This document shows, piece after piece, positions 760-17,118 of a stretch of DNA of 36,702 nt (position 1 is the stretch's first letter; the number at the start of each line of letters is the position of its first letter). Source of the stretch: Minisyncoccia bacterium. Its GTDB lineage: Bacteria; Patescibacteriota; Minisyncoccia; UBA6257. The translations under genes and the position numbers were made by a program. Under the pieces are notes generated by a model, which was not told the origin of the DNA, made no database searches, and was given only the letters and a program-made list of their open reading frames with translations. The DNA is taken from the NCBI GenBank assembly GCA_049699995.1, contig JBNAWD010000001.1, positions 28,831 through 65,532 on the forward strand. Reading direction: 5' to 3'.

Positions 760-770
760 TTGCTAATTAA

Positions 771-2096
771 ATGAAAAATTTCCTGACTTTAATCAAAAAA
801 CATATTTTTTCTAGCCAATCGATTAATTTCTTATTTTTGGGGATAAGTATTTTTTTTGCCTTTTCTTTCGTCTTTTTTATGCCAGAAATTATTCCCCTCC
901 CTTTAATCAAGACGCTTCTTGTCTTATTAGTTATTTTTTTCTACCTATTGAACTTTATTACTCTTTTAAAATTAATAAATCAAACTTTTAGGCTAGATTT
1001 AGAAACTATCCAGGTCAACGCTATTATTAAAAGTATTAGCGACCCTGTCATTGCCTATACAAAAGACTTTGAAATAGTTTTAGTAAATACAGCTTTAGAA
1101 GAATTGGTGGGGTTGCCTCGAGAAAAACTAATTGGAAAAATTATTCGACCGGAAATGGTCAGTGATTCTTTTTACGGGTTTTTAACCAGATTAATTTTCC
1201 CTTCTTTAGCTCCGCTTGTGTTAGAAAGGTCGACTGAAGGTTATCCTCAAGTAATCAAAGTGAAGTTTTTGGAGCCAAAGGAATATATTTTTGAAATTGT
1301 TACTTCTAAGGTTTTAGATGAAAAAGGAAGAGTTTATGGTTTCTTAAAAATTATTCATGATTTAACAAAAGAAGAAGAAATAAAGAGAACCCAATCAGAT
1401 TTTATCACTGTCGCTGCCCATCAATTAAGGACTCCTTTAGCCGGCGCGGCTTGGATTTTAGAAGTTTTAACCTCGGAAGACGCTGGTAAATTAAACGAAG
1501 ATCAAAAGAAACTATTGAATGATGCCCACCTCGCTCTCAAAGAAGCTTTAGCAACTACAGAAGGTTTGTTACAGGCAGCTCAAATTGAAAGTGGAAAATT
1601 AGGATTTCAATTTCAAAAAGCAGATTTGATTCAATTAATTCAAGAAACTTTAACAAAATTTGAACCAGTAGCAAAGAAGAATAATATCAAGCTAATCTTT
1701 TATCCGCCACCTCCTTTGCAAGAAATAATTATTGATTCGTTTAGGATAAAGTTGGTCTTGGAAATCCTAATTGATAATGCCGTAAAATACAATGTCAAAA
1801 ACGGAGAAGTGAGGGTAAGAGTTGACCTGCCAAAAAATCAACCCTTTGTTGTTGTTAGTGTTGAGGATACTGGCATAGGAATTCCCGAAGAAGAATTGCC
1901 TTATCTTTTCCAAAAATTTTTCCGTTCAAAAGTGGCAATGAAAGAAAAAACATCTGGATTAGGATTAGGCCTTTATTTAGCAAAGAATATTATCGAAAGG
2001 CACGGAGGAAAAATTTGGGTAAAATCTGTTTACCAAAGAGGTTCGATTTTCAGTTTTGCTTTGCCCCTAGACCCCTCTTTAATACCTAAATATTAA
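771..2096 (+). CDS. Membrane sensor histidine kinase (2 TM, PAS, HisKA, HATPase; PhoR/WalK-like)
   Basis: H-box AAHQLRTPL, N-box IDNAVKYN, G1 DTGIGIP, G2 GLGLGLY; hydrophobic N-terminus. Confidence 0.93.
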   Translation: MKNFLTLIKKHIFSSQSINFLFLGISIFFAFSFVFFMPEIIPLPLIKTLLVLLVIFFYLLNFITLLKLINQTFRLDLETIQVNAIIKSISDPVIAYTKDFEIVLVNTALEELVGLPREKLIGKIIRPEMVSDSFYGFLTRLIFPSLAPLVLERSTEGYPQVIKVKFLEPKEYIFEIVTSKVLDEKGRVYGFLKIIHDLTKEEEIKRTQSDFITVAAHQLRTPLAGAAWILEVLTSEDAGKLNEDQKKLLNDAHLALKEALATTEGLLQAAQIESGKLGFQFQKADLIQLIQETLTKFEPVAKKNNIKLIFYPPPPLQEIIIDSFRIKLVLEILIDNAVKYNVKNGEVRVRVDLPKNQPFVVVSVEDTGIGIPEEELPYLFQKFFRSKVAMKEKTSGLGLGLYLAKNIIERHGGKIWVKSVYQRGSIFSFALPLDPSLIPKY

Positions 2097-2104
2097 TAGC
2101 AAAT

Positions 2105-2974
2105 ATGCCTGAATTAGCTGAAGTAGAAACTATCATCCGACAACTAGAAAAAGAAATAATCAATAAGAAAATTGAGGATGTTTTTTGTTTCGCTCCAGTA
2201 GTTTTAAAAAATATCCCTCTTTCTTCTTTTAAGCGAGATGTTATGGGTCAAAGGATTAAAAAAATAGAAAGAAAAGGGAAGAATATTTTGATTTATTTAA
2301 GCAATGAATTAGTTATTCTAATTCATTTAAAATTAACTGGCCACCTTTTAATAGGAAAATATGATGCAAAAAACAACCAGTTGATACCAAGGGAAGAAAG
2401 ATTAAAAGACCCAATTAACCGCTTTATTCGATTGGCTTTTCTTTTAAATGATAATCGTTTTTTGGTTCTTTCGGATTTAAGAAAATTTGCTAAGATTTTA
2501 TTATTAAAACCGGAAGAACTAGAAAAAGAATTACAATCCATTGGGATTGATCCTTTAAGCAATGATTTTAATTTAACAAATTTTAAAAATTTATTAACGA
2601 AAAAGAGGGGCCCGATTAAAAAATTCTTAATGGATCAAAAATATATCAGTGGAATAGGAAATATTTATAGTTCGGAAATTTTATTTGAGGCTAGAATTCA
2701 TCCTTTAAAGAAGATTGAAAAATTAACCGAGGAAGAAATAAAAAATTTATATAAAGCCATAAAAAAGGTTCTTTTAAAAGCAATAAAATATCAAGGAACC
2801 TCTGCCCAAGATGAATCTTACCGTAATTTATATGGAGAAAAGGGTGGGTATGAAAAATTTTTAAAAGTTTATCAAAGAGAAGGTCAAAAATGTCTAAGAT
2901 GCGGCCAAGTAATTAAAAGGATAAAGATTGATAATCGCTCGGCTTTCTTTTGTCCTGATTGTCAAAAAATTTAA
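2105..2974 (+). CDS. mutM: Formamidopyrimidine-DNA glycosylase
   Basis: MPELAEVE N-terminus, HLKLTG, GIGNIYSSE H2TH motif, C-terminal CLRC...CPDCQ zinc finger. Confidence 0.97.
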   Translation: MPELAEVETIIRQLEKEIINKKIEDVFCFAPVVLKNIPLSSFKRDVMGQRIKKIERKGKNILIYLSNELVILIHLKLTGHLLIGKYDAKNNQLIPREERLKDPINRFIRLAFLLNDNRFLVLSDLRKFAKILLLKPEELEKELQSIGIDPLSNDFNLTNFKNLLTKKRGPIKKFLMDQKYISGIGNIYSSEILFEARIHPLKKIEKLTEEEIKNLYKAIKKVLLKAIKYQGTSAQDESYRNLYGEKGGYEKFLKVYQREGQKCLRCGQVIKRIKIDNRSAFFCPDCQKI

Positions 2975-7354: not shown

Positions 7355-7426
7355 GCCCTCGTAGTTTAATGGATAAAACTCAGGCCTCCGGAGCCTGCAA
7401 TGCAGGTTCGATTCCTGCCGAGGGCA
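7355..7426 (+). tRNA. tRNA-Arg(CCG), CCA not encoded
   Basis: Acceptor GCCCTCG/CGAGGGC, D arm GTTT/AAAC, anticodon arm CAGGC-CTCCGGA-GCCTG, T arm GCAGG-TTCGATT-CCTGC. Confidence 0.96.
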
Positions 7427-9432: not shown

Positions 9433-9462
9433 ATTATAGCATAATTTTAAATTTTTTGTCAA
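9433..9462 (-). promoter_or_regulatory. Near-consensus sigma70 promoter, minus strand
   Basis: TTGACA-18 bp-TATAAT with extended -10 (TGcTATAAT). Confidence 0.7.
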
Positions 9463-14096: not shown

Positions 14097-14349
14097 AAAA
14101 GGGCAAGTTATGACCTATAAAGAGGTAGCTAAATTGGCTGGTTCGCCTTTGGCTTGGCGAGCAGTGGGTAATATTTTAAAAAGAAATTACGATCCTAAAA
14201 TTCCTTGTCATCGAGTAATAAGAAGTGATGGGAAAATAGGAAATTATAATCGAGGGGCAAAAAAGAAAAAAGAGCTGTTAAGACAAGAGAGAGCTCTTTT
14301 AAGCCTTCAAAATTCAAAAAGAAAAATTAACTTTTTACCAATTCTATAA
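14038..14349 (+). CDS. O6-alkylguanine-DNA alkyltransferase family protein (C-terminal domain only)
   Basis: GQVMTYKEVA, RAVGN, IPCHRVI with the active-site Cys; TTG start. Confidence 0.88.
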   Translation: MKKQKNTFKEKVLKVVKRIKKGQVMTYKEVAKLAGSPLAWRAVGNILKRNYDPKIPCHRVIRSDGKIGNYNRGAKKKKELLRQERALLSLQNSKRKINFLPIL

Positions 14350-14674
14350 TTTTTTCCATTACCTCGGGATTTTTTTCAGATAATTCAGCTAATATTTTTC
14401 GATCTAATTTAATATTCTTTTCTTTTAATAGTTTAATAAAATCTTTATAAGAAAGATTTTTAGAGCGGCAAAAGGCATTAATTTTTACTATCCATAATCT
14501 TCTTTTTTCTCTTTTTTTTCTCTTCCGATCTTTAAAAGCATGAGAATAAGCATGCAATAACGCTTCCCGGGCTAACCTTTCTTTTGATTTTCTTCCCCAG
14601 CGAAAACCTTTTGTTGCTTTTAAAATTTTCCTTCTTTTTTTACGAGCAATAATTGCTCCTTTAACTCGAGGCAT
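14327..14674 (-). CDS. rplT: 50S ribosomal protein L20
   Basis: MPRVK, KGFRWGR, DRKRKKR..RRLWI.KINA, LDRKILAEL. Confidence 0.97.
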   Translation of the reverse strand: MPRVKGAIIARKKRRKILKATKGFRWGRKSKERLAREALLHAYSHAFKDRKRKKREKRRLWIVKINAFCRSKNLSYKDFIKLLKEKNIKLDRKILAELSEKNPEVMEKIIELVKS

Positions 14675-14685
14675 AAATTGAAAAA

Positions 14686-14886
14686 TTATTTAATAGAAAG
14701 ATTTTTAAAAACAATGTTTTTTTTCACCCCTAAAGGAACTAGTTTTTTCTTGTTCCTTTTGGTTTTAGAAGAATCCAAAGTTCTAGTGTGGCCAATATGA
14801 GATTGGCGTCGCAGGATTTTTCTTTTTTTTGTAACTTTCAGTCTTTTTTCAAACAAATGTTTAGCCATTTTTGTTTTAGTACCCAT
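14686..14886 (-). CDS. rpmI: 50S ribosomal protein L35 (divergent)
   Basis: KRLKVT..KILR....H, basic, 66 aa, located between infC and rplT. Confidence 0.85.
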   Translation of the reverse strand: MGTKTKMAKHLFEKRLKVTKKRKILRRQSHIGHTRTLDSSKTKRNKKKLVPLGVKKNIVFKNLSIK

Positions 14887-14895
14887 AAAAAATTA

Positions 14896-15384
14896 TCAAA
14901 AACTTATAATAATAAAAAAACCGTTGGGAGTTCTTTTTAGGGGTTGTATTATTTTATACGATTTATTTATTTTTGTCAAAAAATTCTTAATTTTTTGTTC
15001 CGCAATATCAAAATGACTTTTTTCTCTGCCTTTTAAGAAAATTTCTATTTTTACTCTTTTTTCTTCCTCTAAGAATTCATTAGTTTTTTTAGCTTTAATG
15101 TTTAAATCATTTTCCCCTTCGTTAAAACCGATTCGGATAGTTTTTAAAATGTTCTTCCTTTCGCTTAACTCCTTTTTCCTTAATTTCTTTTCTAATAGAT
15201 ACCTTTCTTTTTCCCAATTGCCCAATTTATAAACCGGGGGATCGGCTTTTTTTGTTATTTCTATTAAATCTAAATGTCGCTCTTGGGCTATTTCAAGGGC
15301 TTTTTGATAAGAGATAATCCCTATTAATTTACCGTTTTCGTCAATTAAACGAATTTCGTTAGCCAAATTCTTTCTCTTGTAAAT
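14896..15384 (-). CDS. infC: Translation initiation factor IF-3, probable AUU start
   Basis: EIRLIDENG, ALEIA...LDLIEI...PPVYK, KGRE. The ORF-track start 15426 lies inside the tmRNA T arm; an in-frame ATT is at 15384 (alternative TTG 15366). Confidence 0.9.
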   Translation of the reverse strand: MYKRKNLANEIRLIDENGKLIGIISYQKALEIAQERHLDLIEITKKADPPVYKLGNWEKERYLLEKKLRKKELSERKNILKTIRIGFNEGENDLNIKAKKTNEFLEEEKRVKIEIFLKGREKSHFDIAEQKIKNFLTKINKSYKIIQPLKRTPNGFFIIISF

Positions 15385-15401
15385 AAATAATCTTTTATAA
15401 G

Positions 15402-15730
15402 TGGAGATGGTGGGATTTGAACCCACGTCTAAAAAGGTTCTTTAAAACCTTCTACGAGGATAGTTTATTTTTATTTTCTCAAGGAAAGGCAAATAAACAA
15501 ACCTTTTCCTTGATAGCTACCTTATTTTTTCTAATAGTTTCCGATAGCAAAAAACTATTAGATAAAGATTGAAATTCCCCGCTGTCTCTTAACTCAGCCT
15601 ATGCATAAGCATAAGCTGGTTGATAGTTGTTTTTGGCATTTATTGATCTCTCGATTTTTTAATGAGGTAACGAGAGTTCCTCGCCTCGCCAGTTTTAAAG
15701 AGCGCCTTTTTATCAAATCCGGTCATCCCC
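15402..15730 (-). ncRNA. ssrA: tmRNA (about 329 nt)
   Basis: 5' GGGGATG pairs with 3' CATCTCC-A (G3.U); T arm GTGGG-TTCAAAT-CCCAC; helix 2 TAAAAAGG/CCTTTTTA and TCTTTAAAAC/GTTTTAAAGA; pk1 GAGG/CCTC plus CTCTCG/CGAGAG; adjacent to smpB. Confidence 0.95.
15599..15637 (-). other. tmRNA tag reading frame (A)AKNNYQPAYAYA*
   Basis: ATAAAT|GCC resume context after pk1; TAG lies in the CAGCTTATGC/GCATAGGCTG hairpin. Confidence 0.85.
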
Positions 15731-16199
15731 AAATTTCTCCTTTTTTCGCTTTTTCAGTCCTTCTTTTTATTTCTCTCTCTTTAATTTTTAATTTCTTACT
15801 GTATTTCTTTCTCTTTTTAGCTAAAGCTAAATCTACTTTAATAAAGCCAGTATAATCATTATACACTTTTAGGGGTATTAATGTCAAGCGCTTCTGTTCT
15901 ATTAAATTCTTTAATCTTAAAATTTCTTTTTTATTTAAAAGAAGTTTTTTTGCTCTTTTAGGGTCATAATCAGAAGGAACATTATTGGGCTGATAGGGAG
16001 AAATATGAAAATTTATTAGAAAAACTTCGTTATTTTTATTAATAACACCATAGACTCCCTTTAAAGAGCCTTTTTTCGCCCTTAATGACTTCACTTCAGG
16101 GCCTCTTAAAACTATTCCGGCTTTTTTTACCTCTAATATTTCGTAATCATAAGGGGCCCGAGTGTTTTCTAATAAAATTTTGATTTCTTCTTTTTTCAT
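15723..16199 (-). CDS. smpB: SsrA-binding protein SmpB
   Basis: ENTRA.YDY, AGIVLRGPEVKSLR, HISPY, DPKRAKKLLL.KKEI, LIPLKVY. ATG 16199 is preferred over TTG 16217, which lies in the promoter. Confidence 0.95.
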   Translation of the reverse strand: MKKEEIKILLENTRAPYDYEILEVKKAGIVLRGPEVKSLRAKKGSLKGVYGVINKNNEVFLINFHISPYQPNNVPSDYDPKRAKKLLLNKKEILRLKNLIEQKRLTLIPLKVYNDYTGFIKVDLALAKKRKKYSKKLKIKEREIKRRTEKAKKGEIWG

Positions 16200-16207
16200 T
16201 TTCTTTA

Positions 16208-16236
16208 ATAATGACAAATTTTTTGAAATTTCTCAA
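16208..16236 (-). promoter_or_regulatory. Promoter for smpB-ssrA (near-leaderless)
   Basis: TTGAGA-17 bp-CATTAT with TG extension, 8 nt before ATG 16199. Confidence 0.5.
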
Positions 16237-16245
16237 AAAAAATAA

Positions 16246-16279
16246 CAAAAAAAGAAATTAGGGAGAGTTGCCTCTCCCT
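16246..16279 (-). terminator. Intrinsic terminator
   Basis: AGGGAGAG-GCAA-CTCTCCCT then AATTTCTTTTTTT on the minus strand. Confidence 0.75.
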
Positions 16280-16285
16280 TGAAAA

Positions 16286-16462
16286 TCAAAATTTATCTTC
16301 GGATAGACTATCCCACTCTTCTTGCCTAGACAAGGTGATCTTTAACTCTAATTGTTTTTTTAAAAATAACAATTTTTCTCTTTTCCCCTCACTAATATTG
16401 TTTTTCAATTTTTTTTCGATACCTTCTAAATTTTCTAAATATTTTAAGACTCTGCTTTTCAT
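16286..16462 (-). CDS. Small hypothetical protein (58 aa, helical)
   Basis: SD AAAGGAGGT 7 nt before ATG 16462 (MKSRVL...); has its own promoter and terminator. Confidence 0.7.
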   Translation of the reverse strand: MKSRVLKYLENLEGIEKKLKNNISEGKREKLLFLKKQLELKITLSRQEEWDSLSEDKF

Positions 16463-16469
16463 TGCCCAT

Positions 16470-16524
16470 ACCTCCTTTATTAAAGAACTCCCCATAGAAT
16501 AACATAAAAAGAACTAAAATTCAA
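16470..16524 (-). promoter_or_regulatory. Promoter, boxA-like motif and SD
   Basis: TTGAAT-17-TATTCT (TG-extended), GAGTTCTTTAATAA, AAAGGAGGT. Confidence 0.6.
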
Positions 16525-16548
16525 ACAAATTCATTTTTTCTTGACTTT

Positions 16549-17118
16549 ATGGTATATTTAGAAAAATGGGGGGGAGAAAATATAACTAAAGGGAAAACAA
16601 TCAAAGAACCAAAATCTTCAAGGTTTAAAGAAAGGCTAAAAAAGCATGAGGGATTGTTAATTTGCCGAAATTGCCAAGCTGTTTATATTAATAAAGCCTG
16701 GCGTCATTTAAAGGATAATCAAAATAAAAAGAACATTAAAAAGGCCATTTGCCCTGCCTGCCTAATGAGGAAAAATAAAAACTTTGAAGGAGAGATAACT
16801 ATAGAATTTAAAACCGATATTAGCAATTCTTTAAAAGAAGAGTTAAAGAATTTAATAAATAATATTTCCCACACCGCTTATCAATTTAATCCTTTATCGC
16901 GAATTGGGGAATTTAAAGAAACAAAGAATAAATGGAATATCTATTTCACCGATAACCAATTGGCAAAAAGAATTGCGACAAAAATAAAAAATAATTTCCT
17001 TAAAAAAATTACTCAATCAGAGAAGAATCCTTACTTAAATGCTTCTCTCAAAATCACCAATCTTCAAGATAAAATTTCCAAAACAAAAATTTTTTTAATT
17101 TTTTATGAAGGGAAATAA
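16549..17118 (+). CDS. BCAM0308/NMD3-like Zn-binding protein (start uncertain)
   Basis: CRNCQAVY..KAW...CPAC....EGEITI, PLSRI, TDNQLAKRI. Confidence 0.65.
   Translation: MVYLEKWGGENITKGKTIKEPKSSRFKERLKKHEGLLICRNCQAVYINKAWRHLKDNQNKKNIKKAICPACLMRKNKNFEGEITIEFKTDISNSLKEELKNLINNISHTAYQFNPLSRIGEFKETKNKWNIYFTDNQLAKRIATKIKNNFLKKITQSEKNPYLNASLKITNLQDKISKTKIFLIFYEGK

Follow-up and report, generated by a model that had tools for sequence, protein, structure and literature searches.

Analysis of the smpB-ssrA region of the window (the whole stretch of 36,702 nt studied here) revealed that the stop codon of smpB lies inside the gene for mature tmRNA, that the same layout recurs among the relatives of this bacterium, and that the predicted promoter of ssrA lies embedded in the coding region of smpB. 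Judging from comparisons of the sequences, the arrangement is rather more probably a compacted smpB-ssrA-infC junction than anything else, and it should not be taken for a demonstrated regulatory device.

The smpB gene occupies positions 16199..15723 of the minus strand and encodes a protein of 158 aa that matches PF01668 (E 6.5e-42), with residues 10-153 corresponding to profile positions 2-142 of 143, so that the C-terminal tail is covered along with the rest of the domain. The ORF enclosing the gene extends over 16217..15723 (minus), and the ATG at 16199 is the smpB start. The tmRNA gene (ssrA) was located at 15730..15399 of the minus strand by the Rfam model RF00023 (156 bits, gathering score 47; model positions 1-374) and at 15730..15401 of the same strand by ARAGORN. 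The latter program also reports the tag AKNNYQPAYAYA*, whose reading frame (GCC...GCA TAG) lies at 15599..15637 (minus; gene positions 94-132). Sequence inspection gives an acceptor stem of GGGGAUG/CAUCUCC with a G3-U pair; the 3' CCA is not encoded. The 3' end of smpB reads ...GGA GAA ATT TGG GGA TGA, with the TGA at 15725..15723 (minus), and its final 8 nt, GGGGATGA (15723..15730, minus), are nt 1-8 of the tmRNA. In the smpB frame, the shared nucleotides comprise the last two bases of a Trp codon, a Gly codon and the stop, which corresponds to tmRNA nt 6-8 and falls within the 5' strand of the acceptor stem. The smpB stop is located 3' of the mature tmRNA 5' end on the same strand, as in an overlap of the Carsonella type. 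Rfam, ARAGORN and the sequence itself all bear out what the preliminary description of this DNA had claimed, namely that the last 8 nt of smpB are the first 8 nt of the tmRNA.

Because the stop codon is tmRNA nt 6-8, every smpB mRNA that carries its stop also includes tmRNA nt 1-8. No terminator-like site was found between smpB and the tmRNA in a scan of 14200..16700; therefore, given the shared nucleotides, the predicted RNase P cut at 15731/15730 would leave an smpB mRNA that ends in ...AUU-U and has no stop. An RNase P RNA is encoded in the genome of the window (G000:C3:16373-16764, 103 bits). An important question is whether the overlap could be an artefact of a mis-called tmRNA 5' end, of an assembly error or of TGA being read as an amino acid. 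We regard this as the least likely of all the explanations considered, with almost no weight left to it: Infernal and ARAGORN place the 5' end identically, both here and in all 124 relatives called by the two programs, and the layout recurs unchanged in G003, an independent assembly, and in ten further genomes. As for the codon, 38 of the 244 stop-to-stop ORFs with 200 aa or more in the genome of the window are closed by TGA, two RF-1-domain genes are present there, and the use of TGA as a sense codon was rejected on these grounds.

To what extent is the layout shared by related bacteria? The tmRNA was searched in 151 genomes of the family and order, and 144 loci were analysed; the seven dropped genomes comprised six without a match above the cut-off and G138, in which the gene is cut by the contig end. 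The smpB gene was found upstream on the same strand in 123 loci and on the opposite strand in 2, and it was absent from the fetched locus in 19, five of which had less than 200 nt of upstream sequence. Stop positions are given for the final base of the smpB stop codon, counted from tmRNA +1. Among the 123 linked order loci, the stop lies inside the tmRNA in 23, belonging to 11 families, at 0 to -6 in 40, at -7 to -20 in 19, at -21 to -50 in 14, at -51 to -200 in 23 and beyond -200 in 4. The most frequent overlapping position is +8, with 12 loci (the window and G003 of family f1, G027, G068, G121, G051, G052 and five g42 species), followed by +41 in three genera of f17 (3 loci), +21 in one genus of f1 (2 loci) and +10 in f22 (2 loci, G047 and G098); the positions +1 (f10), +18 (f19), +24 (f19) and +33 (f6) are represented by one locus each. 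In the rest of the phylum, smpB was upstream in 44 of the best-scoring 89 matches above the cut-off, with one overlap (+8), which gives 24 overlaps in 167 linked loci and 12 families for the phylum (the 123 order loci plus the 44 from the best-scoring 89).

Counted by family and position together, the overlaps fall into 14 or more combinations. Genus g42 has the overlap in each of its five species, and the shared overlap state spans SmpB identities of 58-95% (68.8% between G000, the genome of the window, and G003; 67-70% among the three f17 genera). Stop positions in f1 vary between -75 and +21, and G013 (+21) and G001 (-26) have SmpB proteins that are 75% identical. The overlap is recurrent yet not conserved, and close relatives have stops 0-43 nt upstream. 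The preliminary description had allowed for a one-off extension, to be recognized by relatives with upstream stops. This holds only in part, as the layout recurs (23/123), although most relatives do stop upstream of the tmRNA.

A further question is from where ssrA is transcribed. It had been stated initially that no separate ssrA promoter was obvious, which is wrong: a predicted sigma-70-type promoter is located within smpB at 15858..15887 (minus), with the -35 hexamer TTGACA at 15887..15882, an 18-nt spacer and the -10 hexamer TATAAT at 15863..15858. This 12/12 match, the sole perfect one in 14200..16700, ends 128 nt before tmRNA +1, and its hexamers occupy the Leu-Thr and Tyr-Asn codons of the conserved stretch LTLIPLKVYN. 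Genome-wide, six perfect matches were found on both strands of 397,586 bp, where 20 first-order Markov simulations of the genome yielded 0.25 on average, and 11/12 matches numbered 38, against 13.6 in the simulations. According to an inspection of the ORF list, the remaining five perfect sites sit outside long same-strand ORFs.

Protein constraint was tested on a codon alignment of 123 linked smpB genes (same strand, upstream of ssrA) and 17 unlinked ones from the same order. The motif, scored as at least 10/12 at the homologous codons, is present in 109/123 linked genes versus 1/17 unlinked genes (one unlinked row being a gap). Constraint at synonymous sites is visible at each of the four codons. 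The Leu of the site is encoded by TTG in 113/117 linked genes, while TTG makes up 15% of the Leu codons elsewhere in those genes and was used by one of the seven unlinked genes with Leu at this place. For the linked genes, the Thr is ACA or ACT in 111/116 (53% elsewhere), the Tyr is TAT in 108/118 (66% elsewhere) and the Asn is AAT in 69/72 (61% elsewhere). Linked genes without the motif mostly have long spacers (-195 and -464 in f25; -76, -135, -77 and -59 in other families), which another promoter could occupy; those with short spacers are G049 (-6), G077 (-12) and G100 (-21). The exception among the unlinked genes, G091, retains the motif in perfect form; the 392 nt of contig that follow this gene contain no tmRNA. 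In tmRNA genes without smpB upstream, a promoter-like site ends 8-15 nt before +1. The embedded motif also occurs in many other families of the phylum where smpB is upstream.

These patterns suggest that ssrA is transcribed chiefly from the predicted promoter inside smpB. The pre-tmRNA would then have a 5' leader of ~121 nt (15731..15851, minus, placed from the -10 position and the sequence), to be trimmed off by RNase P, which is the 3' part of smpB and, on inspection, contains no in-frame ATG, GTG or TTG. Since the internal promoter is conserved, most tmRNA precursors probably do not come from a translatable smpB message. The preliminary claim of a stop-less smpB message from every tmRNA maturation is thus unsupported, the embedded promoter predicting precursors that do not contain the smpB start codon. 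A promoter inside smpB had also been named in the preliminary description as speaking against its model, and one is now predicted.

Upstream of smpB, a promoter-like site is predicted at 16208..16236 (minus; TTGAGA-17-CATTAT, with TG before the -10 hexamer; 9/12 match). Its -10 hexamer ends 8 nt ahead of the ATG, and the smpB mRNA is therefore probably leaderless. A TATAAT-like hexamer ending 6-8 nt before the smpB ATG was detected in 52 of 120 loci of relatives, and an SD-like motif upstream of smpB in one of the 120. The scan of 14200..16700 revealed no terminator-like site from the hairpin at 16279..16260 through to rplT. On the other side of ssrA lies infC, encoding IF-3 (14896..15378, minus; matches to IF3_N and IF3_C), followed by rpmI and rplT (Ribosomal_L20). 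The homology to IF-3 starts 21 nt past the tmRNA 3' end, and an ATT is found at 15384..15382. A GTG at 15426, inside the tmRNA, is unlikely to be the infC start, as the IF3_N match begins only at residue 22. In 85 of the 138 order loci with enough downstream sequence, infC is found after ssrA in the same orientation.

How might the overlap of the window have originated? The consensus C-terminus of SmpB in family f1 is ...RGE(I/Y), and the protein of the window ends in ...KGEIWG. The junction of genus g3 reads GGAGAAATT-TAA-TAAT|GGGGATGA, and that of the window reads GGAGAAATTT|GGGGATGA. A 6-nt deletion probably took out the ancestral TAA together with a short spacer, after which the smpB frame became two codons longer, with the UGA at tmRNA nt 6-8 serving as a fallback stop. 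The added residues are Trp-Gly because the tmRNA sequence dictates those codons. TGA is present at nt 6-8 in 76 of the 144 tmRNA genes of the order.

Tight junctions of this kind also occur at tRNA genes. In the genome of the window, 24 of 37 tRNAs have a same-strand ORF (at least 80 aa) that ends no more than 400 nt upstream, and the stop of a same-strand ORF, unvalidated as a gene, falls 0-10 nt before the tRNA in nine of the 37, including the tRNA-Arg at window position 7355. One further ORF, an MgtC-family gene (E 4e-40), stops inside a tRNA, at nt 10 of tRNA-Lys. Among junctions of up to 50 nt, overlaps account for 23/96 at smpB-ssrA in the order versus 1/14 at tRNAs in the genome of the window, a comparison between differing samples with a small number of tRNAs; the tRNA background from relatives is too small for this purpose, with only 7 tRNAs, 3 of them with an upstream ORF, in 165 fetched loci. 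That CDS stops are butted on tRNA 5' ends in the same genome points to general compaction, and the smpB/ssrA junction is probably one instance of t(m)RNA processing punctuating messages.

The deepest overlaps were identified in three f17 genera (G042, G133 and G150), in which the smpB ORF extends as far as tmRNA nt 41, and the 13 C-terminal residues of SmpB, REWSRLRR(K/N)(V/I)ETR*, are specified by tmRNA nt 1-38. The sister genome G095 has the usual distal tail, ...IKKKDVEREIDRKLKN*, which is replaced in the f17 trio; the length after the DKR motif, 18 aa, is identical in all four. The Pfam SmpB match in f17 reaches residue 142 of 147, and phmmer aligned the f17 segment KKREWSRLRR to tails of solved SmpB structures, e.g., DIKEREWQV of chain 7acj_5. 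In the SmpB proteins studied so far, the tail is needed for function. If it is needed here as well, functional SmpB in f17 can come only from the unprocessed co-transcript, and the layout implies, as far as the sequences can tell, that translation proceeds productively into unprocessed tmRNA and precedes cleavage.

The reading that we favour, a compacted junction, can be outlined as follows. The tmRNA would be made mainly from the strong conserved promoter in smpB, so that most of its maturation would spare the translatable smpB message. SmpB would be synthesized from read-through transcripts, probably leaderless, on which smpB and ssrA are co-transcribed, and ribosomes would reach the UGA before the acceptor stem folds and RNase P cuts. 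After the cut, the smpB mRNA would be stop-less, and any ribosomes left on it would need rescue by tmRNA-SmpB. The stop-less message would then be an unavoidable by-product that lowers the yield of SmpB per transcript. As a counterpoint, the persistence of the overlap across divergence could reflect selection and not tolerance. The higher share of overlaps at smpB-ssrA (23/96) than at tRNA junctions (1/14), the perfect motif of unlinked G091 and the missing motif of G049, G077 and G100 also speak against this reading.

The principal rival is the adaptive feedback put forward in the preliminary description: by cutting the smpB-ssrA co-transcript, RNase P would generate a stop-less smpB mRNA, and the SmpB translated from this message would be tagged and destroyed as long as trans-translation is in good supply, which would balance SmpB against tmRNA. 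The geometry speaks for it, since a stop-less message is guaranteed after the cut and RNase P RNA is present, and the product truncated at the cut would end in ...KGEI, the family-consensus C-terminus. The number of family-by-position combinations in which overlaps are found and their persistence within genera also agree with it. Tag-directed proteolysis is plausible in the overlap genomes: of the five searched, ClpP was identified in three and FtsH in four; G003, the nearest relative, has both, and neither was found in G000, which is incomplete. Against it, the conserved embedded promoter uncouples most tmRNA synthesis from smpB mRNA, the stop position drifts between genomes as close as G013 and G001, the same geometry exists at the MgtC/tRNA-Lys junction, which is unconnected to rescue, and f17 indicates that reading into unprocessed tmRNA is productive. 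Moreover, an RNB-family exonuclease (RNase R) was found in none of the five overlap genomes searched. The release of untagged SmpB is a further difficulty. Two RF-1-domain matches were found in 20 of the 23 overlap genomes, one in G150 and three in only two (G068 and G135); G000 (68% complete) is among those with only two such genes, and no ArfB candidate was found in it or in four other overlap genomes. RqcH (NFACT_N) gave no match above the cut-off in five overlap genomes, including G000, so that no route of untagged release was found via ArfB or RqcH. With no such route, nascent SmpB would be stuck when rescue is low, and the loop could lower the amount of SmpB but not raise it. The logic of arfA, which the preliminary description had invoked and which needs untagged release when trans-translation is short, is accordingly not supported, and the feedback as a whole, sound in its geometry but weakened by the promoter, the missing release route and the drifting stop, is possible in a weaker form than proposed; we consider it rather unlikely.

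Two other explanations concern the use of the shared nucleotides themselves. SmpB binds the tRNA-like domain of tmRNA, and this established interaction would allow autogenous control in which SmpB in excess binds the folding domain in its own co-transcript, stabilizes the acceptor stem where it covers the final smpB codons, favours the RNase P cut or blocks termination, and so lowers its own synthesis. The stop is part of the acceptor stem (5' strand), which makes a terminating ribosome and the folded domain mutually exclusive, and very tight junctions predominate in the order, with 63 of 123 stops from -6 to +41. However, the acceptor stem needs the 3' end, which is transcribed ~330 nt later, and the ordinary tRNAs of the genome show equal tightness; we find this control improbable. 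Even less credence is due to a completion of the stop as in mitochondria, in which A residues added to ...AUU-U would create UAA and SmpB would end in ...KGEI, the family-consensus end. The window and G003 both have T at base -1, and the many CDS stops that butt tRNA 5' ends recall mitochondrial punctuation, but other lineages with the stop at +8 have A at -1, which would yield AAA and no stop, and the T at -1 is accounted for as a relic of the deleted TAA. A broader, order-wide scheme joins several of these elements. Leaderless smpB would have no untranslated ends, its 3' end being carved by RNase P at tmRNA +1; where the stop is inside the tmRNA, SmpB synthesis and tmRNA maturation would compete for the same nucleotides and form an autogenous loop, running from SmpB-assisted folding of the tRNA-like domain through cleavage and a stop-less message to tagged SmpB; and in f17, tmRNA nt 1-38 would be the coding sequence of an essential SmpB tail (REWSRLRR...), a dual-use sequence serving an RNA and its protein partner. 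We put this scheme forward as speculation with a small chance of being correct, comparable to that of the feedback, and return to the compacted junction as the preferred reading.

Several known systems resemble parts of the arrangement. The thrS-infC-rpmI-rplT cluster of E. coli contains intragenic promoters; there, as here, the promoter of a downstream gene lies inside an upstream CDS, and infC of the window also holds an 11/12 promoter-like site, upstream of rpmI. The difference is that the promoter in smpB is predicted to drive a stable RNA and that codon usage preserves its hexamers throughout the phylum. In animal mitochondria, transcripts are punctuated by tRNAs, and stops consisting of T or TA are completed by polyadenylation; the likeness consists in CDSs that butt or overlap t(m)RNA 5' ends, with RNase P setting the 3' ends of mRNAs. 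In E. coli, an RNase III cut yields a non-stop arfA mRNA, from which truncated, active ArfA is released when tmRNA is lacking. Both systems have a cut upstream of the stop that would make the product a substrate for tmRNA tagging and tie its level to rescue capacity; they differ in that no ArfB or RqcH release route was found in the genome of the window and that the product regulated here would be a component of the tagging system. The regulation of E. coli arfA is mentioned in PMC4131195.

The closest precedent is the insect symbiont Carsonella ruddii, whose smpB extends into an ssrA gene of the same orientation (Hudson, Lau and Williams 2014, PMC4131195, citing Mao et al. 2009). According to that paper, a non-stop feedback was already proposed for Carsonella, and the smpB/ssrA overlap was found nowhere else among 2031 genome projects. 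The likeness is that the smpB CDS enters ssrA and that the logic proposed there is the same as in the preliminary description. The differences lie in the full tail of the SmpB of the window, in the occurrence of the overlap at 24/167 linked loci of 12 families in an unrelated phylum of small genomes, and in the ssrA promoter embedded in smpB. Same-strand overlaps of a CDS with a tRNA in bacteria are given in Table 4 of the same source (PMC4131195), e.g., an FtsW-family gene with tRNA-Ile in Helicobacter; the MgtC/tRNA-Lys pair in the genome of the window is alike in that the stop lies inside the downstream tRNA gene. The frequency quoted in PMC4131195 is ~1 in 15,000 mRNAs, compared with two cases in the 398-kb genome of the window. 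A literature search for smpB/ssrA overlap in candidate-phyla bacteria yielded only PMC4131195 for the overlap idea, and a search for an ssrA promoter inside smpB yielded nothing; PMC3534368 and bioRxiv 10.64898/2026.09.08.750226 have no bearing on the overlap or the embedded promoter. The feedback idea is thus not new, and no earlier report was found of the recurrence in this phylum with intact SmpB or of the embedded promoter.

The balance between SmpB and tmRNA in cells is only partly understood. The Carsonella overlap, the single published case, has been regarded as an oddity of a symbiont in degeneration. The layout described here recurs in bacteria with intact SmpB, which provide a natural series of stop positions from -43 to +41 for testing regulation. 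Two aspects are independent of any feedback: the predicted ssrA promoter is written into smpB and kept by codon choice across the phylum, and in f17 the 5' part of the tmRNA also codes for the tail of SmpB.

Two alternative C-terminal peptides may be expected for the SmpB of the window: ...GEIWG if the message is read to the UGA, or else ...GEIAAKNNYQPAYAYA. A tagged product would gain one extra Ala, from the charged alanine, ahead of the tag as printed by ARAGORN.

In three genera of one family of the order (f17), nucleotides 1-38 of the tmRNA encode the final 13 residues of SmpB (REWSRLRRKVETR), and these residues align to the conserved tail of solved SmpB proteins. In f17 locus L012, smpB lies at 1806..2249 on the minus strand, and the tmRNA gene at 1846..1501 overlaps its 3' end; the same layout is present in loci L088 and L027. 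Since the start of the tmRNA encodes the protein tail in this family, the 5' end of a stable RNA doubles there as protein-coding sequence.

A related arrangement was identified at tRNA genes in the genome from which the window was taken (G000). On contig C34, the TAG stop of an MgtC-family gene (locus L168, 305..772; E 4e-40) corresponds to nucleotides 8-10 of tRNA-Lys (763..833), and, judged by this overlap, the gene would be the second in the genome to lose its stop upon RNase P processing. Moreover, for 9 of the 37 tRNAs of G000, a putative same-strand ORF stops 0-10 nt upstream of the tRNA 5' end; at tRNA-Arg CCG (window position 7355), this distance is exactly 0. In the placement of putative ORF stops relative to tRNA 5' ends, G000 resembles mitochondrial punctuation. 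Searches for an RNB-family exonuclease (RNase R/II) in five genomes with the smpB-ssrA overlap (G000, which is only 68% complete, G003, G055, G051 and G042) found none in any of them, even though tmRNA-SmpB usually acts together with RNase R when non-stop mRNAs are degraded.

At the other end of smpB, the message looks leaderless, both in the window (16199..16236, minus strand) and at the homologous place in relatives. In 52 of the 120 loci in which smpB precedes ssrA on the same strand, the 3' edge of a TATAAT-like hexamer is 6-8 nt from the smpB ATG (exactly 6 nt in 30), and an SD-like motif was detected in only one of the 120. In the window, TG-n-CATTAT ends 8 nt 5' of the ATG.

Downstream, the window tmRNA gene, which has no encoded 3' CCA, is followed by infC (14896..15399 region, minus strand), with IF-3 homology beginning 21 nt after the tmRNA 3' end and a possible ATT start at 15384..15382 (minus strand). 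A sequence scan revealed no terminator-like site between the two genes, and ssrA and infC are arranged on the same strand in 85 of 138 loci of the order. Within infC, upstream of rpmI-rplT, there is a further promoter-like site close to the consensus (TTGACA-17-TAAAAT, 11/12; 14951..14979, minus strand).

A perfect match to the predicted promoter embedded in smpB is retained in a relative, G091 (L146/L169), in which the tmRNA is absent from the 392 nt downstream of smpB on its contig and is found on another contig, 99 nt from the contig start; the locus may have been rearranged recently, or the assembly may be broken there. Among the six perfect promoter matches in G000, two are intergenic and directed away from the flanking long ORFs, one in the window (9462..9434, minus strand; C1:38292) and one outside it (C1:23307, plus strand). 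These two sites may drive unannotated small RNAs.
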